Origin: Clostridia bacterium | GTDB lineage: Bacteria; Bacillota; Clostridia; Christensenellales; CAG-138 | Length of the DNA stretch: 44,878 nt | Assembly (NCBI GenBank): GCA_033813015.1 | Contig: JAPXSN010000003.1 | Span: 1-44,878 of the forward strand | Direction of reading: 5' to 3' | Program-made: the position numbers and the translations under genes | Notes under the pieces: generated by a model | Told to the model about the DNA's origin: nothing | Databases searched by the model: none | What the model saw: only the letters and a program-made list of their open reading frames with translations | In this document: positions 9,709 through 43,471 of the stretch, piece after piece | Position numbering within the stretch: the first letter of the stretch is position 1 | Layout of the letters: the number at the start of each line of letters is the position of its first letter

Positions 9709-9719
9709 TTGGGGCGGTT

Positions 9720-10049: not shown

Positions 10050-10054
10050 CGCGC

Positions 10055-13681: not shown

Positions 13682-13738
13682 GTAGGGGCCGATATGGAAT
13701 CGGCCCCTACGGATTTCACCCGATTTTTAATTGTCAAT
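13682..13738 (-). repeat. intergenic heptad/GC-hairpin element, copy G (tail-to-tail with copy C)
   Basis: Read on the minus strand: ATTGACA ATTAAAAATCGGGTGAAATCC GTAGGGGCCGAT-TCCAT-ATCGGCCCCTAC. The hairpin core CCGATTCCATATCG is shared with copy B. The TGA stop of the 342-aa adhesin (13734-13736) lies inside the heptad. Confidence 0.7.
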
Positions 13739-15134: not shown

Positions 15135-18100
15135 TCAATCCTCTTCCTCGATGGCGCGCACCTTCTTGCGGATGAACAGACTCGCCGTGAAGATGACCGC
15201 GATCAGCGCAAACGCCGCAACGAAGATGATCAAGCCGGTGTTGCCGGTCTGCGGCGTGCCAAGCGGGGGCTTGGTCGGCGTGGGCGAGGGATCGGGCGTC
15301 GGGTCGGGGCCGCCCTCTTTAACGAACTTCGCCGTCACGGCGAGCGTGTAGGTCGTGGTTTTGAGAATGTAGGGCTCGCCCTCCGTCGGGGTGACGATCT
15401 GGGTGCTGACGCTGACTGCGGCCGTGGACCAGTCGAGCGTGTTGGGCCTCCAACCCTTGAAGATGTAGCCGGGCAGGTAGGGGGCTCCGGCAAGCTCGGG
15501 CGGGGTCAGGGAGTCGACCACGTCGCCGGGCCAGTTGGTGACGCCGCTGACGTAGCCCTGGTAAAGCAGGGTGTAGCGGGCCTCCTCGACGATCTCCATG
15601 CCGGTGAAGGAGCCGTAGGCCGTGCCTTCATATAGAGTCGTGATGATCTCGACGCCGTCGACGATCTCGCTCGTTTCACCCGTCTTCTCCCACGCCGGAG
15701 CGGACCAGCCGGAGAAGTTATAGCCGTCCAGGCTCACCACGGCGCTCGGGGAAATGGGACTCGCGCCCTCTTCATCCGGCGGGTTCGCGGGCTGCCCGGG
15801 CACGCTGCCGAGTATGGCGTAATGCAGCGTATAGTGTTCCCGCTCATTTATCGGGATGAACTGCGCCACGGTGGACGCCTCGAGGTAGTGCGTGTAGATA
15901 AGGCCGTCGGGCGAGATTTCCAGGCGGGAGCCATTCTCCGCATAGTCGCTCCCGCTGATGCTCGCGGGACTCCAGCCCGTGAAGCGGTGGCCGTCGAGCG
16001 AGGCGGTCTCGTCCCCGATGGTCTGCGCGGAGGTTCCGCTCTTCATATCGGGCAGCACGGCGCCCGCGGGGCCGGTGAAGGTGAGCTCGTAGATGTACAC
16101 ATGCTCTATTTTGCCGAAGCTGCCCGTGACGTCGATCTTCTTGGTGTAGGTCGTAACCCACTGGTCGAGCGTTTCGTCAAAGCGGGTTTCGCCTTCCACG
16201 GCCGGGGTGCCGTCCCAATCGAGGGAGCCGGGGTTCCAGCCGCCGAACAACTTGCCGTCCTCGCTGGGCTCGGGCGCGATGGTCGGGAGCGAGGGCGGGT
16301 TGGTGACGTTGACGTCGAGGTGGTCATAGCTGCTTGAGCCGCCGTGTACGGTGTAGTCCACGATGTAGACGTATTCGTTGATGCAGCCCTTCTTGACGAG
16401 CCTGCCCTCGATGGTCGCGGAGTAGACCGTGGTCTTGACGAAGCGGTTGTCCGAGTTGAGCGTATAGCCCAGCACCGCAGCCCATCCGATATCCGCGGCG
16501 GGCGCGCCGTTCTGCTTCCAGCCTTCGAAGGCGTAGCCGAGCTTCGCGGGTGTCAGCGTCGTCAGCGCGGGTTCGCTCGTCTGGTCGGCGAGGTCATTGG
16601 GCCATGTGCCCGGATCGGCGAGGTCCTTGTCGCCGGTGTAGGTGAGGTTCCAGAGTTCTTTCTCAACGATGTCGTTCATCGTGAAGGAACCCGTGACCTC
16701 TGCGGAATAGACGCGGATGGTGATGTACCTATCCCCAACATCGTCGTAGCGGTAGTTGATGCCTGCCGTGCCCCAGTCGAGCGTCGCGTCGCTCACGCCG
16801 GCGCCGTTCTGCGTCCAGCCGGAGAAGGAGTGGCCGTCGAGCGTCGGGTTGCCCGCAAGGCTCGGCTTGCTCGCGGAGCCGCTCACGTTCGCGGGCGGAT
16901 TGCCTATGGTAAGGTTCCTGCCTTCGAGGTCCTTGTACGGCTGACCCGCGATCACATAGGTGAGGTTATAGATGGTTTCCTCGCCGCAGTTCATCGTGAA
17001 GTCGCCCACGACGGCCGCGCTGTACGTCAAAACTTTGATGAATCTGTCCGCAGCCTCGTCGTAGCGGTAGCTGACTGCCGCGCTGCCCCAGTTAAGCGTC
17101 GCGTCATCCACAGCGGAGCCGCTCTGCTTCCAGCCTGTGAAGGTATGGCCCTGCACCGAAGGCGCGCCTGCGAGGGCGGGCTTCGCCGCAGCACCCGTCA
17201 CGTCCGCGGGGCGATTGTTGATGGTGAGGTTGATCCCGTGCGGCGCCTGGTACGGCTCGTTGGCGAACGAGTAGGAGAGGTTGTACAGAGCCTCCTCCTC
17301 GCCCATGTTGCGCGCGAAGCTACCCGTGAGGTGCGCCGTGTAGATGGTCACGTCTATGGTGCGGTTGTGCGCGCTGTCAAAGTCCTGCCGCGTGCTCAGG
17401 GTCCAGACGATGTCCGCGCTCGCGCCAATCGCGGAGCCGCCCTGCGCCCAGCCGCCGAAGGTATGGCCCTTCATCGAGGGGCTTCCGCCGAGGGCGGGCA
17501 TGGTCGGGGAGGCGACGACGTTGGCGGGCATGTTGCTCGCGCTGAGTATCGCGCCGTCGGTCGGGTCGGTATACGGGCCGCCCGCGATGCCGTAGCTGAG
17601 GCTGTATTCGGTCGCCTGGCCGTGCTCATTTTCAGTCACGGTCGCGGAGGCGCCGAGCATATAGCGGGAATACTGCACGAACACCCACACGCCGTCGCGC
17701 TTCTCGAGCTTCTCCTCAAAGGTGGCGGCGGAGTTGCCCCAGGGCAGCATCTGGCCTTCGCCGTAAAACTCATCGGGCTGGCCGAGCGTGACGCCCCACC
17801 CCTTGATGGAGTAGCCCGGCGGTACCGTGGGCAGCGCCTGTGCGCTGAGCGGGGTCGAACCCCTTTGCTGCGCGTCGTACGCACCTATCGTTGCTCCGGT
17901 GTTGTTGGTCACATGGTAATCCACGATGTACTCTTCCACGCTCAGGATGTTCTTGCTGAGCGCGCCGTTGATGGCGAGCTTGTAGCGGATCGTATGCACC
18001 GCGCCCACGCCGGGCTGCGTGCTCGGAACCGTGCCCTCGGAGATGATGCTGAAGTCGCCCTGCTCGAGCGGCGGCGTCTGATCCCAGCCGCCGAAGCTGT

Positions 18101-20429
18101 AGCCGTTGGGGATTATGGGCGAGCCCGCCACGCCCGTGGGCATGCTCGTCACATCCGTGACGCTGTAGCCGAGCATTTCGGTCTTCTCGGCGGTGCCGTC
18201 GCGGGTGACCCAGTATTCGACCGTGTAGAACTTCTTTTCAATGTCCTCGCACTTGACGAAGCGGCCTTCAACGGTGATGGTGCGGTAGATCTTGGTGATG
18301 AATATGCCGCTCACGGGATCGTACACCTCGGGCTGGCTCGTCACCACGACGTAGCTCGCGTTCCAGTTGAAAGCGGACACCGGGCTGCCGCCGATTTTCC
18401 AGCCGCTGAAGTCGTAGCCGTTCTTCGTCGCGTCTGCGGCGAGGGTCGGCGCGCTCTCAACGTTGGCAACATCGTTGGGCCAGGTGGTCGCGATGTCCTT
18501 ATCGCCTGTGTAATTCACGCTGTAGAAGGTCTTTGCGCAGACCTGCTTGGTCAGCGTGCCCGTGAGCGTAATCTTATAGTAATTCTTGATGACGTTGGGC
18601 GCGCCCACGCCGCCGGGCACGGTCACGGTCCGGTCGAAGTCGTAGTTCCCGAAGGCGAGCGCGGTGAGCTTGACCGTCGTGCCCTGCTTGAACCAGCCCG
18701 CGAAGGTATAGCCGTCCTGCGAAATGCCGGCGTTGACCGTTGTGGGCATCGGGGTGGCCTCGACGTAGGCGTTGACGATCTCGCCCGCATCGGCATAGTC
18801 GCCGTCGAGATTGAGGTCGATCTTGTAGGTGACGGAGAAGTACTTCTCGACGACGTCCTCGCACTTGGTGAAAGTGCCGTTGACCGTGATAGTCTTGTGC
18901 GTCAAGGTGACGAACTTCTTGAGCCCCGCGTCGTAATACTCGGGGTCGACCACGACGTTCACATAGCCCGCGCTCCAGTTGAGCGAGGCGGGGCTCCAGC
19001 CGTTGAAGGTGTAACCGTTCTTGGTCGCGTCGGCCGCGATGGAAGGCGCGCTCGAAGCATTGTAGACATTGCTCGGCCAGAAGGTCGCGCCCGCGCTTTC
19101 CCCGGTGTAGAGCACCGTATAATCGGTCTTCGCGCAGACCTGCTTGGTCAGCGTGCCCGTGAGCGTGATGGAATAGTAGTTCTTGATGATCTTCGCGGTG
19201 CCGGGGCCCGCGGGGATAGTCTGCGTGCGGCCGGCATCGAGGTCGTAGTTCCCGAAGGCGAGCGCGGTGAGCTTGACCGTCGTGCCCTGCTTGAACCAGC
19301 CCGCGAAGGTGTAGCCGTCCTGCGAAATGCCGGCGTTGACCGTCGTGGGCATGCTCGCAACGTCGACATGGGCGAGCGTCGTTTCACCCGCGTCGGCATA
19401 GTCGCCGTCGAGGTTGAGGTCGACCTTATAGGTGACGGAGTAATATTTTTCGATGATGTCCTGCAGCGCCGCGAACGAGCCGTGGACATTGGCGATGTAC
19501 TCGGTCGTGCGGATGTAGGAATCCGTGGCGGCGTCGTAGGTGATGACGGGCTCGGCCGCGCTCTTTGTGTAGTTTTCGGCAACGAGGGTCATCAGGTTCG
19601 CGCCGGCGCCGTTGAGCTTCCACCCGTCGAAGCTCGCGCCTACCTTGCTGGCAGTGCCGAGCGTTAGGACAGGAGCCGCCTGCTTATCGACGTCCGCCGG
19701 CCAGATTACGCCGGTCATGTCGGAGGGCTTACCTATATAATGGAGAGTATACACGCTGCGCTCGACGTAGGGCTTGGCCTCCCAGCGGGCATAGAACGTG
19801 TAGTTCTTGTCGACCTTGGACGGCCATGTGGTCACCTTCGTGTAGGTGGAGCCATCGTAGGTATACCAGCCGAGGAACACATAGGCCTGATCGGGGTCAG
19901 TCACCGGGATCGCCGGGAATGCACTCGAGGGCGAGTTTTTGAGATACGCGATGTCGGCATAGCCGAGCGTAGAGCTCGTCTTGCCGATCTGCCCGCCCTT
20001 GCCGTCCACGAGCACGGTCTTGAAGGTCACATCGTAGGTGACGCAGTCGGATTTCCACTGTGCCACGATGTGTATCGTGGGCCAGCTCTTGCTTGTGCTT
20101 GCGCGCGTGAGCGGTATGCTCACCGTCGAGCCCACGGCGGCGTTGCTCTTGAAGAGCGTGCCCGTCTTGCTGCCGACATACACGTTGAAGCCTGTGAACG
20201 TGTATCCGCTGCGCTCGGGCGCGGCCTGGAGCGTGTGATTGGCCGTACCGCTCGTGCCGTTGTTCATCGTTACGTCGTAAGTTTTGTAAGCGGTCTCCGA
20301 GGCGGTTTTGTAATAGTAAACCGTCGTCTCACTGCTCGTGCAGGCGAGCGCCGGGCTCGCCGCCGAGAGCACCATCGCCAGCGTCATGACGAGCGCCATG
20401 AGCCTGGCCAAGCCGATCCTCTTCATCAT
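15135..20429 (-). CDS. giant cell-wall-anchored repeat adhesin (Flg_new/InlB B-repeat type modules)
   Basis: 1764 aa. Signal peptide MMKRIGLARLMALVMTLAMVLSAASPALA. About 17 G-[YH]-x-F-x-G-W repeat cores by eye (e.g. DGYTFAGW, KGHTFGGW, DGHSFSGW), one per ~100 aa. Pro/Thr-rich stalk GGPDPTPDPSPTPTKPP, then TPQTGN plus TM plus RKKVR sorting signal. GAGGGGGA RBS. Confidence 0.9.
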   Translation of the reverse strand: MMKRIGLARLMALVMTLAMVLSAASPALACTSSETTVYYYKTASETAYKTYDVTMNNGTSGTANHTLQAAPERSGYTFTGFNVYVGSKTGTLFKSNAAVGSTVSIPLTRASTSKSWPTIHIVAQWKSDCVTYDVTFKTVLVDGKGGQIGKTSSTLGYADIAYLKNSPSSAFPAIPVTDPDQAYVFLGWYTYDGSTYTKVTTWPSKVDKNYTFYARWEAKPYVERSVYTLHYIGKPSDMTGVIWPADVDKQAAPVLTLGTASKVGASFDGWKLNGAGANLMTLVAENYTKSAAEPVITYDAATDSYIRTTEYIANVHGSFAALQDIIEKYYSVTYKVDLNLDGDYADAGETTLAHVDVASMPTTVNAGISQDGYTFAGWFKQGTTVKLTALAFGNYDLDAGRTQTIPAGPGTAKIIKNYYSITLTGTLTKQVCAKTDYTVLYTGESAGATFWPSNVYNASSAPSIAADATKNGYTFNGWSPASLNWSAGYVNVVVDPEYYDAGLKKFVTLTHKTITVNGTFTKCEDVVEKYFSVTYKIDLNLDGDYADAGEIVNAYVEATPMPTTVNAGISQDGYTFAGWFKQGTTVKLTALAFGNYDFDRTVTVPGGVGAPNVIKNYYKITLTGTLTKQVCAKTFYSVNYTGDKDIATTWPNDVANVESAPTLAADATKNGYDFSGWKIGGSPVSAFNWNASYVVVTSQPEVYDPVSGIFITKIYRTITVEGRFVKCEDIEKKFYTVEYWVTRDGTAEKTEMLGYSVTDVTSMPTGVAGSPIIPNGYSFGGWDQTPPLEQGDFSIISEGTVPSTQPGVGAVHTIRYKLAINGALSKNILSVEEYIVDYHVTNNTGATIGAYDAQQRGSTPLSAQALPTVPPGYSIKGWGVTLGQPDEFYGEGQMLPWGNSAATFEEKLEKRDGVWVFVQYSRYMLGASATVTENEHGQATEYSLSYGIAGGPYTDPTDGAILSASNMPANVVASPTMPALGGSPSMKGHTFGGWAQGGSAIGASADIVWTLSTRQDFDSAHNRTIDVTIYTAHLTGSFARNMGEEEALYNLSYSFANEPYQAPHGINLTINNRPADVTGAAAKPALAGAPSVQGHTFTGWKQSGSAVDDATLNWGSAAVSYRYDEAADRFIKVLTYSAAVVGDFTMNCGEETIYNLTYVIAGQPYKDLEGRNLTIGNPPANVSGSASKPSLAGNPTLDGHSFSGWTQNGAGVSDATLDWGTAGINYRYDDVGDRYITIRVYSAEVTGSFTMNDIVEKELWNLTYTGDKDLADPGTWPNDLADQTSEPALTTLTPAKLGYAFEGWKQNGAPAADIGWAAVLGYTLNSDNRFVKTTVYSATIEGRLVKKGCINEYVYIVDYTVHGGSSSYDHLDVNVTNPPSLPTIAPEPSEDGKLFGGWNPGSLDWDGTPAVEGETRFDETLDQWVTTYTKKIDVTGSFGKIEHVYIYELTFTGPAGAVLPDMKSGTSAQTIGDETASLDGHRFTGWSPASISGSDYAENGSRLEISPDGLIYTHYLEASTVAQFIPINEREHYTLHYAILGSVPGQPANPPDEEGASPISPSAVVSLDGYNFSGWSAPAWEKTGETSEIVDGVEIITTLYEGTAYGSFTGMEIVEEARYTLLYQGYVSGVTNWPGDVVDSLTPPELAGAPYLPGYIFKGWRPNTLDWSTAAVSVSTQIVTPTEGEPYILKTTTYTLAVTAKFVKEGGPDPTPDPSPTPTKPPLGTPQTGNTGLIIFVAAFALIAVIFTASLFIRKKVRAIEEED
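18245..19455 (-). repeat. internal tandem duplication (~600 nt / ~200 aa unit, 2 copies) inside the giant adhesin gene
   Basis: Units start EKYYSVTYKVDLNLDGDYADAGE... and EKYFSVTYKIDLNLDGDYADAGE.... The DNA core 18639-18749 vs 19242-19352 differs at only 2 positions over ~110 nt by eye (a 69-nt identical run); offset 603 nt. Boundaries are approximate. Confidence 0.85.
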
Positions 20430-20725: not shown

Positions 20726-20755
20726 TTGACAATATTGTGTAATTGTAATTATAAT
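20726..20755 (+). promoter_or_regulatory. sigma-A type promoter of the riboswitch/transglutaminase transcript
   Basis: TTGACA (20726-20731), 18-nt AT-rich spacer, TATAAT (20750-20755). Confidence 0.65.
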
Positions 20756-20789
20756 GGTGCCGGAATCGAACATCCGCTCGGAAGATCCC

Positions 20790-20872
20790 GACGAACCGGC
20801 ACACCCGTCCAAAGGCGGGGTCGCAAAGCTAGAGGGCCTAAACGCGAAAGCGCATGGCAGCCAGTTGCCGAA
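20790..20872 (+). promoter_or_regulatory. GEMM-I (c-di-GMP-I class) riboswitch-like aptamer
   Basis: CGGCACA CCCGUC CAAA GGCGGG GUCGCAAAGCU AGAG GGCCUAAAC GCGAAAGCGC AUGGCAGCCAGUUGCCG. It matches, block by block, the conserved GGCAAAC / hairpin / ACGCAAAGC / GGCCUAAAC / GUUNCCG pattern of GEMM-I as I recall it from V. cholerae Vc2. CGGCA and UGCCG can close P1. Located in the 5' leader of the CDS at 20958. Boundaries are approximate. Confidence 0.75.
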
Positions 20873-20957
20873 ACGAGAGCTTTTTCTTCGTTTTCGGGGC
20901 ACTTGGGCGGCGCACGCTATCCCGGCGCACCGCCTCGCGAAAAGAAAGGATAAAAAC

Positions 20958-21860
20958 GTGAAAAAGCACTTCCGACACGGCGCGCTTGCCCTCGCGCTCC
21001 TTTTGGCGCTGAGCGCCCTTGCGTCCCCGGCAGCCGCCGCGGGGGGGTCTCTCGCCTCAAGTCTGCTCTCGCCGCCAAGCGGGAGCGTGGGCATAGACAC
21101 ATCAACGGCCTCGCTGGGCTACGTCGTCCTGTTCTACGACGACGGCACTTCCGCCTCGATGAAGGCGGGCTTGAGCTTCAACGGCGGGAGCTGGTCCTAC
21201 TACGAGTGCAAAATGGGCAAAACGCTTTCGCTCACGCTCACGGGCGGCAGCGGCAGCTATTGCGCGGCTCTGTTCAAAAAGGTCGGCGCGAGCTATGTGA
21301 CCGTAGCGCAGGAGAGCTTCACGGCGCTCGTCGACAGTTCCGTCGTGCCCGCCGCAAGCGCGGCCGCGTCGGCGTATCCGCAGTATCTCAGGAGCGTTTC
21401 TGAAATTTCTTTCACGACAAGCGGCTCGGTCGCCAAAAAAGCGGCCTCGCTGTGCAAGGATTTAAAGAGCGATCAGGCAAAGATACGCGCCATTTACAAC
21501 TACATCGCCAAATACTTCAAATACGATTACGACTTTGCAAACAAGGTCATCTCCGGTCAGATCACGACCTACACGCCGAGCCCCGCGGGCATCCTTTCCA
21601 ACAAGAAGGGCGTATGCTACGACTTCGCCTCCCTCTTCGCCGCCATGTGCCGCAGCCAGGGCATCCCGTGCAAGCTCGTCAAGGGCTACAGCACGAAGAT
21701 CAACGGCTACCACGCCTGGAACAGCGTTTACGATTCCAAGACCGAAAAATGGTATACCGTCGATTTGACGATGGCCGTCTGCAAGGGCAACAAAACGGCT
21801 TCCCGCTTCTCGCGCTGCTATATGAGCGACAGGTATTACACGCCTCACGAAAGCGTCTGA
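20958..21860 (+). CDS. secreted transglutaminase-like (papain-fold Cys-His-Asp) domain protein
   Basis: GTG start after AAAGGA gives the signal peptide VKKHFRHGALALALLLALSALASPAAAA; the upstream part of ORF 20754 is the riboswitch leader. Core motifs: KKGVCYDFASLFAAMCR (Cys), GYHAWNSV (His), WYTVD (Asp). Confidence 0.8.
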   Translation: MKKHFRHGALALALLLALSALASPAAAAGGSLASSLLSPPSGSVGIDTSTASLGYVVLFYDDGTSASMKAGLSFNGGSWSYYECKMGKTLSLTLTGGSGSYCAALFKKVGASYVTVAQESFTALVDSSVVPAASAAASAYPQYLRSVSEISFTTSGSVAKKAASLCKDLKSDQAKIRAIYNYIAKYFKYDYDFANKVISGQITTYTPSPAGILSNKKGVCYDFASLFAAMCRSQGIPCKLVKGYSTKINGYHAWNSVYDSKTEKWYTVDLTMAVCKGNKTASRFSRCYMSDRYYTPHESV

Positions 21861-32308: not shown

Positions 32309-33090
32309 ACTGCTTTGACACGCACGCGCATCTGTGCGACGAAAAATTCGATTCCGACCGCGGCGAGCTGATCGCTTCCCTGCCCGAATCGGGCGTGGCG
32401 CTTTGCATCAACGTCGCCTGCGAGGCGGACGAGTTCGGCGCGAGCGTGGAGCTGACGCGCCGTTATCCCTTCCTCTACGGAGCCTACGGCATCCACCCGC
32501 ACGTCGCCTCAAATCCCGGCGAAAATTGGGAAGATAAGCTTCGCGCCGCGCTCGCGGACAAAAAAGCCGTAAGCCTCGGTGAGATAGGTCTCGATTATCA
32601 CTACGATTTTTCCGAAAGGCCCGACCAGAAGCGCGTTTTCGTGCGCCAGCTCGAGATGGCCAGGGAGCTGAACCTTCCCGTCCAGCTCCACATTCGCGAG
32701 GCGTTCGGCGACTGCATGGATGTCCTGCGCAGCCACCGCGACGGCCTTCGCGGCGAGATGCACTGCTATTCCGGCTCCATCGAAACCGCGCGGGAGTGCC
32801 TTGACCTCGGCCTCTACATCGCGCTCGGCGGCGCGGTTACGTTCGAAAACGCCCGCCGCCTAATCGAGGTCGCGGCCTACATACCGGACGATCGCCTGCT
32901 CGTTGAAACCGACTGTCCGTACCTGACGCCCGTACCGTTTCGCGGCCGCCGCAACGACCCCTCGAAGATCGTCCACACAATCCGGCGGCTCGCGGAGATC
33001 CGCAATACGACGGCGGAGCATGTGGCGCGTATGACGTTGGAGAATGGGAAAAGGCTGTACGGGATAACAGAGCAGCCTGTCACATATTAG
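32305..33090 (+). CDS. tatD: TatD family metal-dependent hydrolase/DNase
   Basis: The TTG start overlaps the GNAT stop (TTGA). FDTHAHL, EIGLDYHY, VQLHIREA, ETDCPYLTPVPFRG. Confidence 0.85.
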   Translation: MNCFDTHAHLCDEKFDSDRGELIASLPESGVALCINVACEADEFGASVELTRRYPFLYGAYGIHPHVASNPGENWEDKLRAALADKKAVSLGEIGLDYHYDFSERPDQKRVFVRQLEMARELNLPVQLHIREAFGDCMDVLRSHRDGLRGEMHCYSGSIETARECLDLGLYIALGGAVTFENARRLIEVAAYIPDDRLLVETDCPYLTPVPFRGRRNDPSKIVHTIRRLAEIRNTTAEHVARMTLENGKRLYGITEQPVTY

Positions 33091-34385
33091 TCCGCCTTTA
33101 TATCGCGCTCAAGCTCCGTTCGAATGTACCGATCGAAAGCGTTTATGTCCAGCCGGAACACATGGGCATTGCCCGACGTTCGTTTCATAATTGGCAATCG
33201 GTCGCTTGTAATCATTTCGTGAACGAGCCTCCTTGTTTTGGCTAGTCCGACTTCAGAGTATGCCTTGAGCGTGGAGATATCGAAATAGTTGTCTTCGTCC
33301 GAGAACAATGCCGCCTGAACGAAGACGAACAGCAGCCCTTTTTTCGTTTCAACATCTTTTTCCTTTCCCCCAAATAACAGCGATTTTAAACTGTTCAACC
33401 TGCTTTCATAGTATATGAGTTTATCGTTTCCTTCCCTGACCTGCTCCTCTACCCGTTGCGCCGCGCTAAGCAAAATTTCAAGAAACGCAATGACAAAAGG
33501 CGTTAAGTCCCCCGCGTTTTTGCCTTCGTTACAGATAGAAAAAGCCTTGTAGTATTCAGCCTTTTTTTTCTTAAATTCCGCCGAGGCGGCAAGTCCTAAA
33601 AGCTTGTTCACAGTTTGGTAAAGCAGCCCGCTCATGACAAATCGGTTTATTCTTCCGTTGCCGTCATAAAACGGGTGCGCATAAGAAAACAAATAGTGAA
33701 AAACGGCAATTCGAATCAGTACGGGCAAATCTTCGCTGTTCAGTATTCTAATGGATTGCTCGATATGCTCTATGAGTTTTTCTTCCGGACCGATTCCCTG
33801 ATGGACGTGGTCTCCGTGTGGATTATCTATATAAACGGTTCCTTTTCTGAATATCGTCCCATCGGGAATATCTTCTGCGTCAATCTCATCCAGAACAACA
33901 TCATCGTAGATCTTCCTGACATCCACGGATGAATTCAGGGATATCTTAATTTCATCATTCAGCAGCATAAGGTATTTTTTTATCATGCCCTCAAATCTTT
34001 TTCCGCCGGATTTCCTGTTTGCCCGGAGCGCGTCGATTGTATTGTTTATTTCTCTTTTTGTACTGTGTATATTTTCTATTTCATTCGTGTTTTGAATTTC
34101 GTCTATGAGGCATTGGTTGATGTAATGGCTTTTTGCCCCCTCGGGAAAGCGCGAAAAAATGGAGTTAATTTCAGCGGCACACATACATATTTTCTCTATC
34201 AAAACACTCTGCTCGTAGGTGCACGCCAAAAACGCTTCGTGCTCTTCCTGCGCACCAAATTCCTTTATAGAAAGAGGAAATCTGATCGTGCCAAATGCCT
34301 GCCGCCTCTTTTTGACCTCATCCGCATAAGCCTTCGGCTTGGCGGAATATAAGTAAAACTTGCTTTTCAGCAATTCGTACCTCAT
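33087..34385 (-). CDS. Fic family protein (AMPylase-type fold) with N-terminal inhibitory-helix motif
   Basis: 432 aa; Fic motif HPFYDGNGRINR. The upstream TNEIEN fits the [ST]xxxE[GN] auto-inhibition motif. The gene is conspicuously AT-rich compared with its flanks. Confidence 0.85.
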   Translation of the reverse strand: MRYELLKSKFYLYSAKPKAYADEVKKRRQAFGTIRFPLSIKEFGAQEEHEAFLACTYEQSVLIEKICMCAAEINSIFSRFPEGAKSHYINQCLIDEIQNTNEIENIHSTKREINNTIDALRANRKSGGKRFEGMIKKYLMLLNDEIKISLNSSVDVRKIYDDVVLDEIDAEDIPDGTIFRKGTVYIDNPHGDHVHQGIGPEEKLIEHIEQSIRILNSEDLPVLIRIAVFHYLFSYAHPFYDGNGRINRFVMSGLLYQTVNKLLGLAASAEFKKKKAEYYKAFSICNEGKNAGDLTPFVIAFLEILLSAAQRVEEQVREGNDKLIYYESRLNSLKSLLFGGKEKDVETKKGLLFVFVQAALFSDEDNYFDISTLKAYSEVGLAKTRRLVHEMITSDRLPIMKRTSGNAHVFRLDINAFDRYIRTELERDIKAD

Positions 34386-36430: not shown

Positions 36431-37470
36431 ATATGGAAATCGAAGTCAAACTCACCAAGCTCGCCAACTGCGCGGGCTGCGGCGCGAAGGTCGGCGCGGG
36501 CACGCTCGCAAAGCTGCTGGGCGACTTTCCGCCCGAAGCGGACCCGAATTTGCTCGTGGGCTTCGACCATGCGGACGACGCCTCGGTCTACCGCGTGTCG
36601 GATACGCTCGCGCTCGTGCAGACGCTCGACTTTTTCCCGCCCATCGCGGACGACCCGTATACCTACGGGCGCATCGCGGCGGCCAACGCGCTCTCGGACG
36701 TTTACGCCATGGGCGGAACGCCGAAGCTCGCACAGAACATACTCGCCATCCCCGAGGATATGCCGGGCGAGGCCGTCCGGGAAATACTCCGCGGCGGGTT
36801 CGACGCGGCGCGCGAGGCGGGTGCGCTCATCACGGGCGGCCACAGCATTTTCGACGAGGAGCCAAAGTACGGCATGTGCGTCACGGGCTTCGTGCACCCG
36901 GCTAAAGTGCTCACCAACGCGGGCGCGAAGGCCGGGGATGTGCTTTTCCTCACCAAGCCCCTCGGCTGCGGCGTCATCACGACCGCCGCAAAGGCCGGGC
37001 GCTGCCCGGAGGAATCGCTCAAAGCGGCCATCGCGAGCATGACGCGGCTCAACAAGTACGCCGCCGAGGCCATGGCCGGTTTTCGCACGCACGCCTGCAC
37101 GGATGTGACGGGCTTTTCGCTCATGGGCCACGCGCTCGAAATGGCGCAGGCATCCAAAGTGACTATGGAGTTCACGGCTTGCGCGATTCCGCTTTTGCCC
37201 GGCGCGCTGGAGCTCGCCCGCGAAGGGCTGCTGCCCGGCGGCATGTACCGCAACCGCGCGTTCGCCGAAGCCTATGTGGAGGCGGAGGGGTTGGAGCAGG
37301 CGTTCGTTGACCTGCTCTTCGACCCGCAGACCTCGGGCGGGCTGCTCGTTGCCATGGACCCCGTTGACGCGGACGCGTTTGAGGCGCAGCTTTGCGAAAA
37401 AGCGCCGCTCGCGCGGCGCGTGGGGTTTGTGCGGGAGTCCTCACTCGGCAAAATCATCGTGCTTGCCTGA
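36427..37470 (+). CDS. selD: selenide, water dikinase (Cys-type, no in-frame TGA)
   Basis: KLANCAGCGAKVG active-site loop and an AIR-synthase-like fold (DDASVY, DFFPPIADDPYTYGRIAAANALSDVYAMGG). Its ATGA overlaps the yqeB stop. Confidence 0.9.
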   Translation: MNMEIEVKLTKLANCAGCGAKVGAGTLAKLLGDFPPEADPNLLVGFDHADDASVYRVSDTLALVQTLDFFPPIADDPYTYGRIAAANALSDVYAMGGTPKLAQNILAIPEDMPGEAVREILRGGFDAAREAGALITGGHSIFDEEPKYGMCVTGFVHPAKVLTNAGAKAGDVLFLTKPLGCGVITTAAKAGRCPEESLKAAIASMTRLNKYAAEAMAGFRTHACTDVTGFSLMGHALEMAQASKVTMEFTACAIPLLPGALELAREGLLPGGMYRNRAFAEAYVEAEGLEQAFVDLLFDPQTSGGLLVAMDPVDADAFEAQLCEKAPLARRVGFVRESSLGKIIVLA

Positions 37471-38559
37471 GGCGCGTTTTTTCCGCCTGCTCTCGTAGAG
37501 CGCGGAGCGGATGGCGGAGAGCACCTCGTCCGTGCCGTCGGCGAGCGCTTCGGCGCTCATGGTCGCCACAAAAGAGAGGCGGCGGTCATACAGATCGTTG
37601 ACCGCGTCGAGCAGCGTTTTCGGCGAGAGCTTCTCCTGCTCCAGCACCATGGAATAGCCTTTTCTTGCAAAGTAGCCCGCGTTGAGTATCTGGTCGCCCC
37701 GGCTCGCGGAGAGCGGCAGGGGAATCAGCAGCGCGGGTTTTGCGAGCGCGAGGAACTCGAACACCGCGTTCGCCCCCGCGCGGGAGACCGCGAGGTCCGT
37801 CGCGGCGAACACATCAGGCAGCTCGGGGCCGACGAACTCGAACTGGCGGTAGCAGTCCTCGCACAGAAGCTTCGCGTCCACCTTATCCTTGCCGCACAGG
37901 TGCACGACGTCGAAGCTTCTTGTGAGCGCATCGAGGCTTCCGCGCACGGCGTCGTTGATGGCCGCGGCGCCTAAACTGCCGCCCATGACGAGCAGCACGG
38001 GCTTCGCCCCGGAAAAGCCGAGGAATTCGAGGCCCTTGGCGCGCCTACCTAGGTACAGCTCCGGCCGTATGGGCGTGCCCGTATGCACGCCTTTTTCACC
38101 GGTATATTTGAGCGTATCCTCGAAGGTGACGCATATGGTCGTAGCAAAGCGCGCGTTTATCCTGTTGGCGAGGCCGGGCGTATAGTCCGATTCGTGCGTC
38201 ACGACGGGCACGCCCTGCGCTCTGGCCGCGAGCACCACGGGCACGCTCACGAAACCGCCCTTGCTGAACACGACGTCGGGCTTGACTTTTTTTATGACCG
38301 CGCCCGCCTCGGCGACGCCCGCTATCACACGGAAGGGATCCGTGAAGTTCTTCCAGTCGAAGTAGCGGCGGAGCTTTCCCGAACGGATGGCGTGGTAGTT
38401 TATGCCCGGGCGGCCCTCGATGAGCGCGCGCTCGATGCCGTCCTTCGTGCCGACGTAGTGCAGCTCGCACCCCTCGGTGAGAAGCTGCGGGAAGAGCGCG
38501 AGGTTGGGTGTGACGTGTCCGGCGGAGCCGCCGCCGGTAAAGAGTATCTTTTTCTTCAT
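37441..38559 (-). CDS. murG: UDP-N-acetylglucosamine--N-acetylmuramyl-(pentapeptide) pyrophosphoryl-undecaprenol GlcNAc transferase
   Basis: ILFTGGGSAGHVTPNLAL and GGSLGAAAIN; 372 aa. The last 30 nt overlap the 3' end of selD on the opposite strand. Confidence 0.9.
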   Translation of the reverse strand: MKKKILFTGGGSAGHVTPNLALFPQLLTEGCELHYVGTKDGIERALIEGRPGINYHAIRSGKLRRYFDWKNFTDPFRVIAGVAEAGAVIKKVKPDVVFSKGGFVSVPVVLAARAQGVPVVTHESDYTPGLANRINARFATTICVTFEDTLKYTGEKGVHTGTPIRPELYLGRRAKGLEFLGFSGAKPVLLVMGGSLGAAAINDAVRGSLDALTRSFDVVHLCGKDKVDAKLLCEDCYRQFEFVGPELPDVFAATDLAVSRAGANAVFEFLALAKPALLIPLPLSASRGDQILNAGYFARKGYSMVLEQEKLSPKTLLDAVNDLYDRRLSFVATMSAEALADGTDEVLSAIRSALYESRRKKRASGKHDDFAE

Positions 38560-38695
38560 GCTTGCCTTTCGGTGGGGGCGCGCCCCCCGTTTGTTGCCTG
38601 AAAGCGGAAATAATTATACCATCGGACGCGGTTTTATGCTATATTAGTATGACAGAATCCGTCGGAAATCCGGCGGGCGGCAGGGGAGGCCACGC

Positions 38696-40051
38696 ATGCG
38701 CGATTTCAGGGAGTGCGACCCGACTAAGGGGGCCGAGCGGATCGCGGCGCTCACGTCAAGGCTTACGGTGCTCCGGGATGAAACCGGGGGGCCTTTGGAT
38801 ATTCTGCGCGAATTCGCCTATACCCTGAGCGTGGGCGACACGCCGGGCGCATACCGCGTCTACCACGACCTCGCCCGGGCGCTGCTTCTGTGCGGAGCGC
38901 GCAGGGTCAGCGGCGACCTTTTTATGGATTATCTCCTCTGGCTCGTCCTCGCTCGGGAGCACGCCTTCGCGCTCATGGCGGCTTCGGGCCGCCTGGAAGC
39001 GCCCGAGCAGCTCGCCATGAAGGCGGACCTCGCGGCGCTGGGCGAGCTTGCGACTCTCGCGAGCGCGGATCTCGTGCGCATGGCAAACGAAAGGCACCGC
39101 GAGCTGCAGCTTCGCACGCGCTATCCCAAGGACGATATTTCCGCCATGTCCACCGCGCTTTGGAGCGGCTCCGCGCCGCGCCCCGTCCAGCAGGAGCAGA
39201 AGCCCAACGGGCTGCCCGCTTCCATCGCGCTTCCGCCCGAGCAGGAGTGGCTGCCCTGGCATTACGGCGAGCAGTCCTTTCCCGGCGAATGGGCTGCGGA
39301 CGAGGCGCTCGAGGAGGTATACCTTCGCCTGCTCAAGGCGCCTGACTGGCGCGGTGCGTGCGACGATCTTTGGAACCTGTTCGCGTCCTACGGCAGCGGG
39401 GATTTCCTCAAGTCGCGCGTGTTCTTTGTCAAGGGCGGCGCGCTCCTGCCCGCCGAGAGCACGCCGTGGGTCTGCCCTGTGTCGTACTACGACGCGCAAA
39501 GGCTCAGGCTCACCGAAAGCGTCATCGCCTTCATGCGCGGGGAGGCCGCCTCCCACGCGCTGATCTACGGCCCCGAGGGCTGCGGCAAGACAGCGCTCGC
39601 GCTCAACCTCGCCGAGGACCTGCCCGAGCTTCGCGTCGTCGTCGTGGACGACCCGGCGAACGCGGATGTGTTCTGGCTCATCGAAAAGCTCCGCCGCGAG
39701 CCGCTGCGCTTTTTGCTGCTGCTCGACGGCGTGGACGCGGATGCCTGCGCGTCCAAGGTGCTCCTTTGCGCCTGTAGCCGCGGCGGGCTGCCGCAAAACG
39801 TGCTGCTCGCCGCAACCTCGAGGGAGCCGGGCTCGCCGGGAACCTTCCCGCTGACGATCGAGATGAAATACCCGCGCATATCGGACTTCATCGACATCGT
39901 GTGCGAGCTGTTGGAAACGCAGGATGAGCCGTTCGACCGGCAGGAGGTCAGGAATCTCTGCGTCGATTTGCAGGTCGATGCGCGGGAAAAGCTCACCATG
40001 ACCGCCGCCGTGGCCGCCGCAAACAGATACAAAGCCCAAAAAGGGCGTTAA
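38696..40051 (+). CDS. DUF815-like P-loop ATPase with long unknown N-terminal region
   Basis: 451 aa. The C-terminal third has HALIYGPEGCGKTALALNLAEDL (Walker A), LRFLLLLDGVD (Walker B-like) and NVLLAATSRE, laid out as in the DUF815 family. GGGGAGG RBS. Confidence 0.6.
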   Translation: MRDFRECDPTKGAERIAALTSRLTVLRDETGGPLDILREFAYTLSVGDTPGAYRVYHDLARALLLCGARRVSGDLFMDYLLWLVLAREHAFALMAASGRLEAPEQLAMKADLAALGELATLASADLVRMANERHRELQLRTRYPKDDISAMSTALWSGSAPRPVQQEQKPNGLPASIALPPEQEWLPWHYGEQSFPGEWAADEALEEVYLRLLKAPDWRGACDDLWNLFASYGSGDFLKSRVFFVKGGALLPAESTPWVCPVSYYDAQRLRLTESVIAFMRGEAASHALIYGPEGCGKTALALNLAEDLPELRVVVVDDPANADVFWLIEKLRREPLRFLLLLDGVDADACASKVLLCACSRGGLPQNVLLAATSREPGSPGTFPLTIEMKYPRISDFIDIVCELLETQDEPFDRQEVRNLCVDLQVDAREKLTMTAAVAAANRYKAQKGR

Positions 40052-40062
40052 GAAAGGTTTTT

Positions 40063-41460
40063 ATGCAAGTCTACAACACCATGACAAGAAAAAAAGAGGA
40101 GCTCGTGCCCCTCACCCCCGGCGTGATCCGCATGTATGTGTGCGGGCCGACGGTCTATAATTTCTTTCACATAGGCAACGCGCGTCCCTTCGTCGTGTTC
40201 GACACGCTGCGCCGTTATCTCGAGTATAAGGGCTACAAGGTCGTCCTCGCGCAGAACTTCACGGATATCGACGACAAGCTCATCAACCGCGCCAACGCCG
40301 AAGGCACGACCGTCCCCGAGATCGCCGAGCGCTACATCAAGGAGTATTACCGGGATGCGGACGCGCTTTCCATAGAGCGCGCGACGGTCAATCCCCGCGC
40401 GACCGAGCATGTGGATGAGATCATAGCGCTCGTCGAGACCCTCATCGGGCGCGGCCACGCCTACGCCGCGGACAACGGGGATGTGTACTTCTCCGTCAGG
40501 AGCTACCCTGAATACGGAAAGCTCTCCGGCCAGTCGATAGACGATCTCGAGAGCGGCGCGCGCATCGACCCGACCGAGCACAAGCGCGATCCCCTAGACT
40601 TCGCGGTGTGGAAGGGCGCGAAGCCCGGCGAGCCGAGCTGGGAGTCCCCCTGGGGCAAGGGACGGCCGGGCTGGCACATCGAGTGCTCCGCCATGAGCAT
40701 GAACATTTTGGGCGAAACCTTCGACATTCACGCGGGCGGGCAGGATCTCGTTTTCCCGCACCATGAGAACGAAATCGCCCAGAGCGAGGCCGCCACAGGC
40801 AAGCCCTTTGCGCGCTACTGGATGCACAACGGCTACATCAACATCAACAACGAGAAGATGAGTAAGTCCCTGGGCAATTTCCTGCTCGTGCGCGACATCG
40901 CAAAGGAGTTTGACCTCGAGGCGGTGCGGCTGTTCCTCTTGGGCGCCCAATACCGGAATCCCGTCAACTTCTCGCGCGAGCTCATCGAGCAGGCGGACAC
41001 CGCGCTTTCGCGCATCCGCACCGCCCGCGAGCGGCTCGACGACGCTATGAAAAAACCGGCCGAAGCGCCGGACCCGGAGGACGCGGCCTTCCTCGCCTCT
41101 GTGCCGGAGTTCCGCGCGCGCTGGGAGGAGGCCATGGACGACGACCTCAACACCGCGGACGCGCTGGGCGTGCTCTTCGACTTCACGCGCAGCCTAAACA
41201 GCTTTGTCAGCGAGCCGCGCGGCATTGAGGCGCTCGAAGCAGCGGACGCCTTCATGAAGGACGTCTGCCGCGTGATGGGCCTTTTACAGCACAGGCGCGA
41301 GGAGGAATTCCCCTTAGAGGCGCTTGCGCTTCTCGCTCAGCGCGGGGCCGCGCGCGCCGCCAGGGACTGGGCGCGCGCCGACGCCATACGAGAGGAGCTC
41401 AAGGCGCTCGGCTTCGCCGTGGAGGATGGGAAAGACGGCGCGAAGCTCAAAAGGCTTTGA
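40063..41460 (+). CDS. cysS: cysteine--tRNA ligase
   Basis: HIGNARP (HIGH), KMSKSLGN (KMSKS), GWHIECSAMS zinc site. Confidence 0.95.
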   Translation: MQVYNTMTRKKEELVPLTPGVIRMYVCGPTVYNFFHIGNARPFVVFDTLRRYLEYKGYKVVLAQNFTDIDDKLINRANAEGTTVPEIAERYIKEYYRDADALSIERATVNPRATEHVDEIIALVETLIGRGHAYAADNGDVYFSVRSYPEYGKLSGQSIDDLESGARIDPTEHKRDPLDFAVWKGAKPGEPSWESPWGKGRPGWHIECSAMSMNILGETFDIHAGGQDLVFPHHENEIAQSEAATGKPFARYWMHNGYININNEKMSKSLGNFLLVRDIAKEFDLEAVRLFLLGAQYRNPVNFSRELIEQADTALSRIRTARERLDDAMKKPAEAPDPEDAAFLASVPEFRARWEEAMDDDLNTADALGVLFDFTRSLNSFVSEPRGIEALEAADAFMKDVCRVMGLLQHRREEEFPLEALALLAQRGAARAARDWARADAIREELKALGFAVEDGKDGAKLKRL

Positions 41461-41554: not shown

Positions 41555-42124
41555 ATGGCACACCTGGCATTCGCAACGCTCCTTATGGACGGCGCGGCGA
41601 CGTCGTCCGAAGCGGCCGCAACCGACTCCCCCGGCATCGTGATGGTGCTTTTCAAGGCGATCATCGCGGTATACCTGCTCGCGGGCGCCATCCGCGGCAA
41701 GGGCAAGCTCATCGACAACCAGTTTCCCAAGTGCAAGCCCGAGACCTATCGGCTCATAATGCGACTCATCTGCGCGTTCGCGGCGCTCGTGATCCTCGCC
41801 AACAGCGCCTTTGAGTTCCTCGCGGACACGACCTACCTCCCGCTGACGCCTGAGCAGTACAGCTTCATCAACACCGTTCTCTGGGCGGTCGGCCTCGTGG
41901 GTCTGCTTGCGCTGATCGTGGTGAACATCGTGCTCACCGACCGCAAGGCCATGGATGAGGCGCGAAAGAAGCAGGAGCAGGAACGCCTCGGCTCCAATAA
42001 GGGCGATCGCCTGCGCGCGGCGTTCGTCTTTGACGAGGAAGAGGAAAAGCAGGGCGAGTTCACGCGCAAGACCGGCGCGGACGAGGGCGCTGCGGACGAC
42101 GGAAATCCAAACGGTCAGGCCTGA
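41555..42124 (+). CDS. hypothetical membrane protein with acidic/basic cytoplasmic tail
   Basis: 189 aa; three predicted TM helices, then RKKQEQERLGSNKGD...DEEEEKQGE. GGAG RBS 7 nt upstream. No recognisable family. Confidence 0.55.
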   Translation: MAHLAFATLLMDGAATSSEAAATDSPGIVMVLFKAIIAVYLLAGAIRGKGKLIDNQFPKCKPETYRLIMRLICAFAALVILANSAFEFLADTTYLPLTPEQYSFINTVLWAVGLVGLLALIVVNIVLTDRKAMDEARKKQEQERLGSNKGDRLRAAFVFDEEEEKQGEFTRKTGADEGAADDGNPNGQA

Positions 42125-42163
42125 GCTGAAAAAGCACCCCTCACAAAAGGAAAGGACATACAT

Positions 42164-43471
42164 ATGAAGAAAATGCACCGTTTACTCGCAGCCGCGCTCG
42201 CGCTGGCCATGCTGCTCTCTCTGTTGCCCGCGGCGACGCTTGCCGAAACGTCCTCCGGCTCGCTCGGCGGTTCCGGCTCGCTCGGCGGCGGCTCCGGCTC
42301 CGACTCCGGCAGCGCGTCGAACACGGCCGTCTATGGCGCGACGACCGCGACCTGCAACTTCCGCACGGGGCCGTCCTCCTCATACGCAAAGGTTTCCGGC
42401 TGCAGCACCGTCCCCAAGGGTGCGAGCGTGACCATACTCGACAATACCTCCGGCGGCAAGTACTGGAAGGTTGCCTATAAGACCTACACCGGCTGGGTCT
42501 ATGGGCCGTATGTCAAAATCACAAGCGCCCCGGACAGCTCCGGCGGCACGACCGGCGGCACCACGGGCGGCACGGCGAGCGGCGAAACCGTCTACGGCCA
42601 GCTGAGCGCGGACTGCTACTTCCGCGTCGGCTCGGATAAGTCCTCGGCCAAGGTTTCCGGCTGCAACGTCATCAAGAAGGGCTCGACCGTCGTCATACTC
42701 GACAACACCTCCGGCGGCTCCTATTGGAAGGTCAGCTACCAGTCTTACACCGGCTGGATCTATGGGCCGTATGTCAAAATCACAAGCGCCCCGGGCTCCG
42801 GCGGCACGACCGGCGGCACCACCGGCGGCACCACGGGCGGCACGCTCTCCTATGCCAAATATACGGGAACCTCGGCGGATCAGTGGGGCTACATGCAGGT
42901 CGACGGCACCAACATCAGCCAGGCTATCTACTGCAACGCCATCGACGGCAAGGGCAACTTCTATTACAACGCGTACTCCTCGAGCTATAACTACTTCTAC
43001 GCGCTGAGTTACCTCACCAACCCCATCGCGGTCATCTACGGCCACAACATGCGCAAGTCCGGCGTGGGCATGCACCAGCTCCACCATGTGCAGAACGCGT
43101 GGCTTGGCAAGTCCAAGTGCGAATACTGCGGCAAGGACTGCTCCGGCGCGAAGACGAGCGTATTCAACATTTCCTACAACGGCGCTTCCCGCTGGCAGCT
43201 CGTGGGCTTCTTCGAGGCCTCCAGCTCGACCATCAGCTCCTCCACCACGCGCAGCAACATTCAGCTCATGGCGGCCATGCAGTCCTACCGCACCGGCTCC
43301 GCATTACAGGAGTGGATCAATTACATGATGAGCTACTGCACCTCCTCCTACAAGGGCGCGACGCTCGGCTCCATGACCTCGAGCGACAAGGTGATGGTTC
43401 TCGTGACCTGCGCGGACAGCTCGGGCGACAGCTACCAGAGGATGTACATGCTGCTTAAAGCGGTTGGATAA
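42164..43471 (+). CDS. secreted 2x SH3b domain + class B sortase-like domain fusion protein
   Basis: Signal/anchor MKKMHRLLAAALALAMLLSLLPAATLA. Two ~87-aa SH3b-type repeats (NFRTGPSSSYAKVSGC...YWKVAYKTYTGWVYGPYVKI, and again) separated by GGTTGGT linkers. The C-terminal domain is collinear with S. aureus SrtB as I recall it: WGYMQVDGTNIS, VIYGHNM (His), VLVTCADSSG (Cys), YQRMYM (Arg). Confidence 0.7.
   Translation: MKKMHRLLAAALALAMLLSLLPAATLAETSSGSLGGSGSLGGGSGSDSGSASNTAVYGATTATCNFRTGPSSSYAKVSGCSTVPKGASVTILDNTSGGKYWKVAYKTYTGWVYGPYVKITSAPDSSGGTTGGTTGGTASGETVYGQLSADCYFRVGSDKSSAKVSGCNVIKKGSTVVILDNTSGGSYWKVSYQSYTGWIYGPYVKITSAPGSGGTTGGTTGGTTGGTLSYAKYTGTSADQWGYMQVDGTNISQAIYCNAIDGKGNFYYNAYSSSYNYFYALSYLTNPIAVIYGHNMRKSGVGMHQLHHVQNAWLGKSKCEYCGKDCSGAKTSVFNISYNGASRWQLVGFFEASSSTISSSTTRSNIQLMAAMQSYRTGSALQEWINYMMSYCTSSYKGATLGSMTSSDKVMVLVTCADSSGDSYQRMYMLLKAVG

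Follow-up and report, generated by a model that had tools for sequence, protein, structure and literature searches.

A class-B-sortase-fold domain in a predicted exported SH3b protein of a Clostridia bacterium

The gene at 42164-43471 and its modular product

The contig JAPXSN010000003.1 of a Clostridia bacterium (assembly GCA_033813015.1; Christensenellales, CAG-138) was analyzed over its positions 1 to 44,878, and this 44,878-nucleotide stretch is referred to here as the window. The subject of this study is the forward-strand open reading frame (ORF) at 42164-43471, which had been described, from its letters alone, as a sortase B-like catalytic domain fused to two SH3b cell-wall-binding domains and as the candidate cognate enzyme of two [AT]PQTG adhesins encoded elsewhere in the window. 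The ORF of 435 aa was found as described, with the motifs VIYGHNM, KCEYCGKDC, VLVTCADSSG and YQRMYML all present as quoted in this original prediction. The GC content at its third codon positions (GC3) is 0.87, which is in the range of real genes in the window (62% GC). The positions of all features are listed in Table 1.

The predicted arrangement of a signal peptide, two SH3b modules and intervening linkers was borne out both by a search with hidden Markov models (HMMs) and by structure prediction. The Pfam model SH3_3 (PF08239) matched two stretches of the protein with 51.2 bits (E 1.4e-13; gathering threshold 27 bits), and the full-length AlphaFold model contains a helix at residues 3-18 that corresponds to the signal peptide, two beta-rich SH3b modules and a confidently predicted domain at residues 230-435, separated by low-confidence Gly/Ser/Thr linkers at residues 22-54, 123-140 and 211-229. 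The predicted template modeling score (pTM) of the full-length model, 0.54, is consistent with independent modules that are arranged on flexible linkers like beads on a string. The two SH3b modules are 67% identical to each other, and since several aligned orthologues have a single SH3b module, we regard the pair as a tandem duplication. By analogy with other members of the SH3_3 family, the modules would bind peptidoglycan; peptidoglycan binding by SH3b is described in PMC6461655. Signal-peptide cleavage and topology were judged by eye from the sequence and its orthologues. The AxA-type c-region of the signal peptide is conserved in the orthologue alignment, and cleavage by signal peptidase I would leave the mature protein with no membrane anchor. 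The last strand of the catalytic domain is also the end of the protein, and a C-terminal anchor is absent. The linkers are encoded by short tandem repeats of 12-21 nt (42253-42310, 42542-42583 and 42798-42843), through which linker length could differ between strains.

Table 1. Positions of the features considered in this study. Coordinates refer to the window unless another locus is named.
Feature	Position	Strand	Basis or remark
Whole ORF including stop, SH3b-SH3b-sortase-B-like protein, 435 aa	42164-43471	+	translation
Shine-Dalgarno sequence AGGAAAGGA	42148-42156	+	7 nt before the ATG of the ORF; direct sequence reading
Predicted Sec-type signal peptide, aa 1-27 (MKKMHR, hydrophobic core, ATLA followed by E)	42164-42244	+	sequence
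Gly/Ser-rich linker 1, aa 28-54	42245-42325	+	predicted local distance difference test (pLDDT) <50; DNA tandem repeats of 18-21 nt
SH3b module 1, aa 55-120	42326-42523	+	best Pfam SH3_3 stretch 65-118; beta-rich, pLDDT 75-90
Gly/Thr-rich linker 2, aa 121-141	42524-42586	+	pLDDT <50; 12-nt repeats
SH3b module 2, aa 142-208, duplicate of module 1	42587-42787	+	second SH3_3 stretch
Gly/Thr-rich linker 3, aa 209-229	42788-42850	+	pLDDT <50; 12-nt repeats
Divergent class-B-sortase-fold catalytic domain, aa 230-435	42851-43468	+	profile, hhalign, AlphaFold2, Foldseek
Codon of His294 (GHNMR motif), putative catalytic His	43043-43045	+	aligned to YGHNM of canonical SrtB
His/Cys-rich segment H304-x2-H307-H308 ... 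C319-x2-C322-x3-C326	43073-43141	+	helix, then knuckle
Codon of Cys416 (VTC motif), putative nucleophile	43409-43411	+	aligned to (L/I)(S/T)TC of SrtB
Codon of Arg426, putative third triad residue, Cys + 10	43439-43441	+	aligned to the Arg of S. aureus SrtB
Gene of a protein with three predicted transmembrane helices, 189 aa	41555-42124	+	ends 40 bp before the ORF
Block of murG (minus strand), DUF815 AAA-ATPase gene and cysS	37441-41460		conserved across Christensenellales and relatives (L001, L003, L062-L064)
342-aa surface protein with Flg_new repeats, ending APQTGD, transmembrane segment, RSRRKN	13734-14762	-	candidate substrate
1764-aa adhesin-like protein with Flg_new repeats, ending TPQTGN, transmembrane segment, RKKVR	15135-20429	-	candidate substrate
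Tandem paralogue pair in locus L027	2224-3633 and 3793-4875		positions within L027
Tandem paralogue pair in locus L028	9062-10567 and 10607-11962		positions within L028

Relationship of the C-terminal domain to class B sortases

The relationship of the C-terminal domain to sortases emerged when the family was used as a profile. No sortase was matched when the protein was used as a single sequence in searches of the PDB, and a profile built from 19 close homologues retrieved six matches from all PDB sequences, every one of them a class B sortase. The best of these was C. perfringens SrtB (5b23, E 6.5e-4), with the GHNM and TC motifs and the following Arg aligned. When the family profile was compared with a set of 18 canonical class B sortases by hhalign, the two were aligned over 157 columns with a probability of 98.1% (E 6.8e-14) and with the His and Cys residues in register. 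Conversely, an HMM of the canonical SrtB set scored the protein at 38.7 bits as its sole match in the window. An AlphaFold2 model of the isolated domain (pLDDT 86.8, pTM 0.87) gave a concordant result in Foldseek searches of the PDB: the best 19 matches were all class B sortases, from C. perfringens, S. pneumoniae, C. difficile, S. aureus, L. monocytogenes, B. anthracis and S. pyogenes (E 1.5e-9 to 4e-6, TM-scores 0.54-0.64), and the E-values of sortases of classes C, A, D, F and E were weaker by 3-6 orders of magnitude. The model also has helices at its residues 133-144 and 151-162, located between the equivalents of strands beta6 and beta7, which is a class-B-type feature. The beta6/beta7 loop of SrtB contributes to substrate binding. 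Although the identity of the domain to solved sortase structures is only 12-19%, the profile, hhalign and structural matches agree, and we therefore place the domain in the sortase B lineage as a true but highly divergent member. Thus, the ORF encodes a class-B-sortase-fold domain that was overlooked by standard annotation. Of the hallmarks of class B sortases, the fold and the catalytic motifs are present, whereas scores above the curated HMM cutoffs, type II membrane topology and clustering with substrate genes are not.

The closest structural counterparts are the clostridial enzymes (C. perfringens 5B23; C. difficile 4UX7 and 5GYJ), with Foldseek E-values of 1.5e-9 to 1e-8 and TM-scores of 0.59-0.64. 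With these the domain shares not only the helices in the beta6/beta7 loop but also the motifs D-x-W/V-G-x-I-x-(V/I)-x-G-T-x-I, (V/I)xYGHNM, MF/MH-x-LH and (L/I)xTC and the Arg that follows. However, the clostridial SrtBs have an N-terminal transmembrane anchor where the present protein has a cleavable-type signal peptide, and the latter carries about 200 extra residues of SH3b modules and linkers before the domain, as well as a 13-residue Cys knuckle and additional His residues. The spacing from Cys to Arg is 10 residues, compared to 7-9 in the canonical clostridial set, and in this respect the domain resembles S. aureus SrtB (1NG5, 1QWZ, 4LFD), which has the same spacing, is matched by the family profile and is found by Foldseek with E about 3e-8. 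S. aureus SrtB is a membrane-anchored enzyme of the isd iron-uptake locus with specificity for NPQTN, and it has neither the SH3b modules nor the His/Cys insertion.

Catalytic residues and the His/Cys-rich insertion

The three putative catalytic residues occur in the order expected for a sortase, but they are not equally well conserved. His294 was found in 147 of 150 aligned family domains and the position of Cys416 is occupied by Cys in 142 of 144, compared to 109 of 131 domains (83%) with Arg at the position of Arg426; S, K, F, H, A, T or G replaces it in the other 22. The relatives without this Arg include a subclade that is 67% identical to the protein. The proposed collinearity with S. 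aureus SrtB therefore held for the spacing and for the aligned Arg, but not in the sense of an Arg that is invariant throughout the family.

Between the His and Cys regions lies the predicted Cys-rich insertion, which the hhalign alignment defined as 13 residues relative to canonical SrtB, just past the strand of the catalytic His. The His/Cys segment is the best-conserved block in the alignment of the close family, and AlphaFold models show it as a helix followed by a beta-bridged loop, both with high pLDDT. Within this segment, H307 is common to canonical clostridial SrtBs ('MFAxLH' in 118 of 122), whereas H304 (Ala in canonical enzymes), H308 (Asn or Tyr) and the CxxC insertion are family-specific. 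This pattern suggests that the knuckle is a possible structural metal (Zn) site. A match of the Cys-rich segment to a zinc finger (2ma7, E 1.2) was not significant and was set aside as a resemblance of pattern at most.

The uneven conservation of the triad bears on the question of whether the domain is an enzyme. It could instead be a sortase-fold module of non-catalytic or regulatory nature, one to which a peptide motif or a metal binds but which performs no turnover. Replacement of Arg426 in 17% of the relatives, including an entire subclade, would be in accord with such a pseudo-enzyme, as would the facts that the His/Cys knuckle rather than the surroundings of the triad is best conserved in the close family and that the curated sortase models fail on the protein. 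However, essentially all relatives retain His294 and Cys416, at identities down to about 20%, and this near-universal conservation is hard to explain without catalysis. The protein itself, moreover, retains the full triad. We consider a pseudo-enzyme very unlikely.

A family of sortase-like domains with different N-terminal modules

To define the extent of the family, an exhaustive profile search was performed against 1.84 billion cluster representatives (E<=1e-3). It returned 135 representatives, and canonical sortases appeared only at the weak end of the list. The family is rare, and the gene studied here is its conserved and usually single-copy representative in Christensenellales and neighboring Clostridia. 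In nearly all members the domain forms the extreme C-terminus of a longer protein. Among 91 members that were analyzed with Pfam, SH3_3 was found in 36, RCC1 repeats in 20, dockerin in 12 and TPR in 2. The family bridges to Pfam's own Sortase model, since 48 of these 91 members match PF04203 (E<=1e-3); the syntenic orthologues have weak Pfam Sortase matches together with SH3_3, and the class B model TIGR03064 scores members of the wider family at 22-69 bits. The N-termini of 102 fusion-type members comprise 63 signal peptides of the signal peptidase I type and 28 lipoboxes, and 100 of the 102 have the catalytic domain at their very end and so are without a C-terminal anchor. Such interchangeable targeting modules fit an extracytoplasmic enzyme that is sent to different surface locations.

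In public sources the members are named 'hypothetical protein', 'uncharacterized protein YraI' or 'dockerin type I domain-containing protein', and none is called a sortase. We found no paper on SH3-, dockerin- or RCC1-sortase fusions, and a literature search for Christensenell* together with sortase returned nothing relevant. The view that the SH3b-sortase combination had not been discussed was thus sustained, although the combination is not unique to the window, as shown by the SH3_3-bearing representatives counted above. This is a divergent, relocated sortase-B-like family, and both the family and the architecture are undescribed. The nearest species-level genome is that of 'Firmicutes bacterium ADurb.Bin248', with a domain that is 93% identical, and other relatives are metagenome-assembled genomes of Christensenellales, Candidatus Pelethousia, Oscillospiraceae and Acutalibacteraceae. 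The window has matches in the metagenome-assembled genome GCA_964627285.1 and in a JGI contig from a digester, and the sequence was found again in at least 20 metagenome runs from digesters, sludge or wastewater.

Several uncharacterized relatives illustrate the range of architectures. P0110 (lipobox and RCC1), P0121 (dockerin) and P0030 ('YraI') have the same C-terminal domain behind exported N-termini, and they share the tail T-C-G/A-D ... R-L-Y-x-F-L-K that always closes the protein. They differ from the SH3b protein in their N-terminal modules, about half of such relatives are without the CxxC knuckle, and no gene for a three-helix membrane protein adjoins theirs. P0110 (locus L061, 5420-7264) and P0121 combine a lipobox or signal peptide with RCC1/beta-propeller repeats and dockerin and the sortase-like domain, and both genes lie in housekeeping contexts without the three-helix partner. 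As judged from their domain composition, the dockerin-bearing relatives would imply a sortase-fold enzyme on cellulosome-type scaffolds. Tandem paralogue pairs occur at the syntenic site in several genomes of Oscillospiraceae, Pelethousia and Christensenellaceae (loci L022-L029; examples in Table 1), and in one copy of some of these pairs F, L or Y replaces the Arg of the catalytic triad ('TYLCMLLK').

Gene neighborhood and the three-helix membrane protein

The gene directly upstream of the ORF encodes a small protein with three predicted transmembrane helices (hereafter 3-TM protein). It has the motifs 'YLL..A..GKGK' (with a 'GKGK' loop) and 'TDR' and an acidic tail 'AAFVFDEEEE', which is conserved as 'AAFVFD(D/E)E'. 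Pfam gave no match for this protein, and its detectable homologues, about 20 in number, are all 'hypothetical'. A similarity to ZIP metal transporters in NCBIfam (23 bits compared to a cutoff of 231) is most likely compositional, and a protein with three transmembrane helices cannot be a ZIP transporter.

The order murG (minus strand), DUF815 ATPase gene, cysS, 3-TM gene and ORF constitutes a conserved block. In 30 loci the 3-TM gene lies directly 5' of the orthologue, at identities down to 26-40%, and the pairing repeats in more distant genomes. It also persists at loci where cysS or mnmE has left the neighborhood; in L010 and L012-L015, for example, cysS is gone and the DUF815 gene still adjoins the pair. 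In the loci examined, the 3-TM gene was not found beside canonical sortases or distant family members. Both genes are covered by metatranscriptome contigs of low depth, one of which (41907-42228) crosses the junction between them. The two genes are probably co-transcribed, the RNA evidence for this and for expression being weak. A scan for promoters and terminators near the gene returned counts that did not exceed those in shuffled sequence.

PQTG proteins and canonical clostridial class B sortases

As predicted, two surface proteins of the window end in APQTGD and TPQTGN, followed by a transmembrane segment and a basic tail. The complete tripartite sorting signals are APQTGD-VNYLGYAMLLLGLSASLAGFVLV-RSRRKN and TPQTGN-TGLIIFVAAFALIAVIFTASLFI-RKKVR, N-terminal signal peptides are visible in both proteins, and the 342-aa protein also gave a weak Gram_pos_anchor match. 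Their genes are 22-28 kb away from the ORF, with unrelated genes in between. In both proteins the scissile bond lies 3-4 residues outside the transmembrane segment, and a membrane-anchored enzyme would be best placed to reach it.

The reading proposed originally was that these [AT]PQTG surface proteins have the SH3b protein as their cognate sortase, possibly the only one and of the housekeeping type, which would cleave them between Thr and Gly and join them to peptidoglycan. Its appeal lies in the class-B-type fold and triad, in the presence of two complete PQTG signals in the same window and in the fact that no other sortase-like ORF was found in the window plus 10 kb beyond its left edge (about 55 kb of genome). 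The peptide specificity of related enzymes is in line with this as well, and the statement made on this point was correct: SrtB of C. difficile cuts peptides of the type (S/P)PXTG, with SPQTG among the best, so that this signal type is known to be used by a clostridial class B sortase (PMC4155245). The distance between the genes is in itself no obstacle in this reading. The genes of housekeeping sortases usually lie apart from those of their substrates, and the gene of the SH3b protein is conserved, usually single-copy and situated in a housekeeping locus. However, neither end of the protein would be membrane-anchored, yet the bond to be cleaved is close to the substrate's membrane segment, and the enzyme would have to reach it through its long linkers or by binding to the 3-TM partner.

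The genomic contexts of the orthologues and of canonical enzymes also speak against this assignment. In none of 31 orthologue loci was a credible sorting-signal gene found within 10 kb. The candidates encountered there were antisense ORFs or BrnQ transporters; thus, in L011 and L013, ORFs with 'LPLAS/LPFAS' endings on the downstream side of the orthologue, considered as variant signals, proved to be BrnQ amino-acid transporters. A transglutaminase-like homologue near the orthologue in L017 was likewise discarded, with glycine-cleavage genes in between and no PQTG protein there. Canonical SrtBs from the same scans are 250-320 aa long with a basic N-terminus and a transmembrane signal-anchor, and those in L036, L044, L046 and L052 score 151-160 bits with TIGR03064 (cutoff 153.75). 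Unlike the present gene, the canonical genes adjoin those of sorting-signal substrates, namely small proteins ending in SPKTG, APKTG, SPQTG, APRTG or APQTG, with a gap of 75 bp in L046. In other Clostridia, it is therefore typically a canonical, membrane-anchored class B sortase that serves signals of the [SA]PxTG type. The absence of the Arg from several close relatives and the dockerin, RCC1 or TPR fusions of others, which do not suggest sorting at the membrane surface, point in the same direction. A dedication of the SH3b protein to the [AT]PQTG adhesins thus found no linking evidence, and we regard it as doubtful, though it is the foremost of the alternatives.

The canonical enzymes deserve mention in their own right. 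A canonical-SrtB profile had 5408 matches among 5.8 billion proteins, and only Ruminococcus is named among the best 120 of the 5408. In Lachnospiraceae, Acutalibacteraceae and Robinsoniella, canonical class B sortases adjoin proteins of 170-250 aa that end in [SA]P[KQ]T[GS], a transmembrane segment and a basic tail (loci L036, L042, L046, L047, L052, L054-L057 and L059). In L052, L054 and L056 there is also a 1500-aa LPITG protein, and L052 contains a second, weak sortase-like ORF (17744-18565).

Function of the SH3b protein at the cell surface

Many enzymes with SH3b modules act on the wall itself, and this possibility was considered here. The Cys/His domain could be an endopeptidase or transpeptidase on stem peptides or cross-links that remodels the wall and processes no protein, in a role analogous to those of SH3b-bearing hydrolases and of Cys/His L,D-transpeptidases. 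The layout of the protein, with a signal peptide, SH3b repeats (its SH3_3 matches) and a catalytic domain at the C-terminus, recurs in many wall hydrolases, and SH3b enzymes such as lysostaphin and the NlpC/P60 endopeptidases with SH3_3 share its general plan of a signal peptide, wall-targeting repeats, flexible linkers and one catalytic domain. In addition, some relatives have weak EntFM-like and TagH_SH3-like matches, the peptidoglycan-synthesis gene murG adjoins the conserved block, and no protein substrate is genomically linked at the orthologue loci. However, the SH3b wall enzymes hydrolyze peptidoglycan with M23, NlpC/P60 or amidase folds rather than a sortase fold, and we know of no sortase-fold enzyme that acts on peptidoglycan alone. 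The closest structures are protein-sorting enzymes, with which the model shares the two helices in the beta6/beta7 loop, and relatives fused to dockerin, RCC1 or TPR would sit away from the wall. We consider an enzyme directed at peptidoglycan unlikely.

The explanation that we favor, with a probability of about one half, is that the protein is an exported, wall-tethered transpeptidase or peptidase of the sortase B fold that acts on exported protein and is not the organism's classical membrane-anchored sorting enzyme. After cleavage of the signal peptide, the SH3b pair would hold the mature protein in the peptidoglycan layer. Within a short motif of a second exported protein, the thiolate of Cys416 would attack a peptide bond, with His294 as the proton shuttle and Arg426 positioning the substrate; either a cell-wall amine (transpeptidation) or water (cleavage) would then resolve the resulting thioacyl intermediate. 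The His/Cys knuckle would most simply be a structural metal site, and the 3-TM protein may, speculatively, position or regulate the enzyme at the interface of membrane and wall.

Several observations weigh against this view. The curated models did not recognize the protein: Pfam PF04203 gave no match with the full-length sequence, and with the isolated domain it reached 12.4 bits (E 0.14) in the Cys region only, below its gathering threshold of 26.6, so that in this respect the expectation of a Pfam Sortase match failed where the expectation of a sortase fold in the predicted structure, with class B enzymes as the best Foldseek matches, was upheld. TIGR03064, an equivalog model for class B sortases with a cutoff of 153.75 bits, matched neither the protein nor the close relative P0012 at E<=10, and no other NCBIfam model matched the protein. 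The loss of Arg in 22 of 131 domains means that some members of the family may be inactive or have another mode of action. If the signal peptide stays uncleaved, the N-terminus would anchor the protein in the membrane like ordinary sortases. It should also be noted that the whole block is syntenic, and functional coupling of the 3-TM gene and the ORF is therefore inseparable from inherited gene order. Finally, the low-depth RNA signal could include DNA carry-over.

A more far-reaching version would be that Christensenellales are without a membrane-anchored sortase and that a secreted, SH3b-held housekeeping sortase, with a His/Cys metal knuckle that stabilizes or regulates it and a dedicated 3-TM partner, attaches their PQTG proteins to the mature wall, its relatives being 'relocated' sortases. 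This is a bold and rather improbable proposal; if it were true, the relatives would represent an unrecognized class that ligates proteins at other surface sites, for example cellulosome scaffolds.

Returning to the favored explanation of a wall-tethered enzyme acting on exported protein, its significance lies in the placement of the enzyme. To our knowledge, a transmembrane segment keeps every characterized sortase at the membrane. This placement suits an enzyme that handles sorting signals retained in the membrane and, in the mechanism classically described for S. aureus, lipid II. The present family keeps the nucleophile and the His but is exported behind cleavable signals or lipoboxes, and if active it would represent a different use of sortase chemistry on the cell surface. 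Such activity could explain the attachment or release of proteins at the wall or on cellulosome scaffolds, and it might provide new specificities for sortase-based protein ligation. Since standard annotation is blind to the family, sortase inventories of gut and digester Clostridia miss its members. The His/Cys insertion and the conserved 3-TM neighbor are concrete, testable handles. Were the protein merely an accessory wall enzyme, the result would amount to a modest improvement of annotation.

Other features of the window

Just upstream of the PQTG genes lies a cluster resembling type II secretion or type IV pilus systems (8665-12504, plus strand), which encodes a T2SSF platform protein, a DUF4860 protein, two small proteins with hydrophobic N-termini and a T2SSE ATPase. 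The divergent neighbor of the 1764-aa TPQTG adhesin (20754-21860, plus strand) encodes a transglutaminase-core protein that weakly matches a 'transglutaminase-related lipoprotein' family; a homologue with 57% identity occurs in L017 in an unrelated context. A 432-aa ORF on the minus strand (33087-34385) has a GC3 of 0.51 compared to about 0.8 in its neighbors, and it may be foreign or recently acquired.

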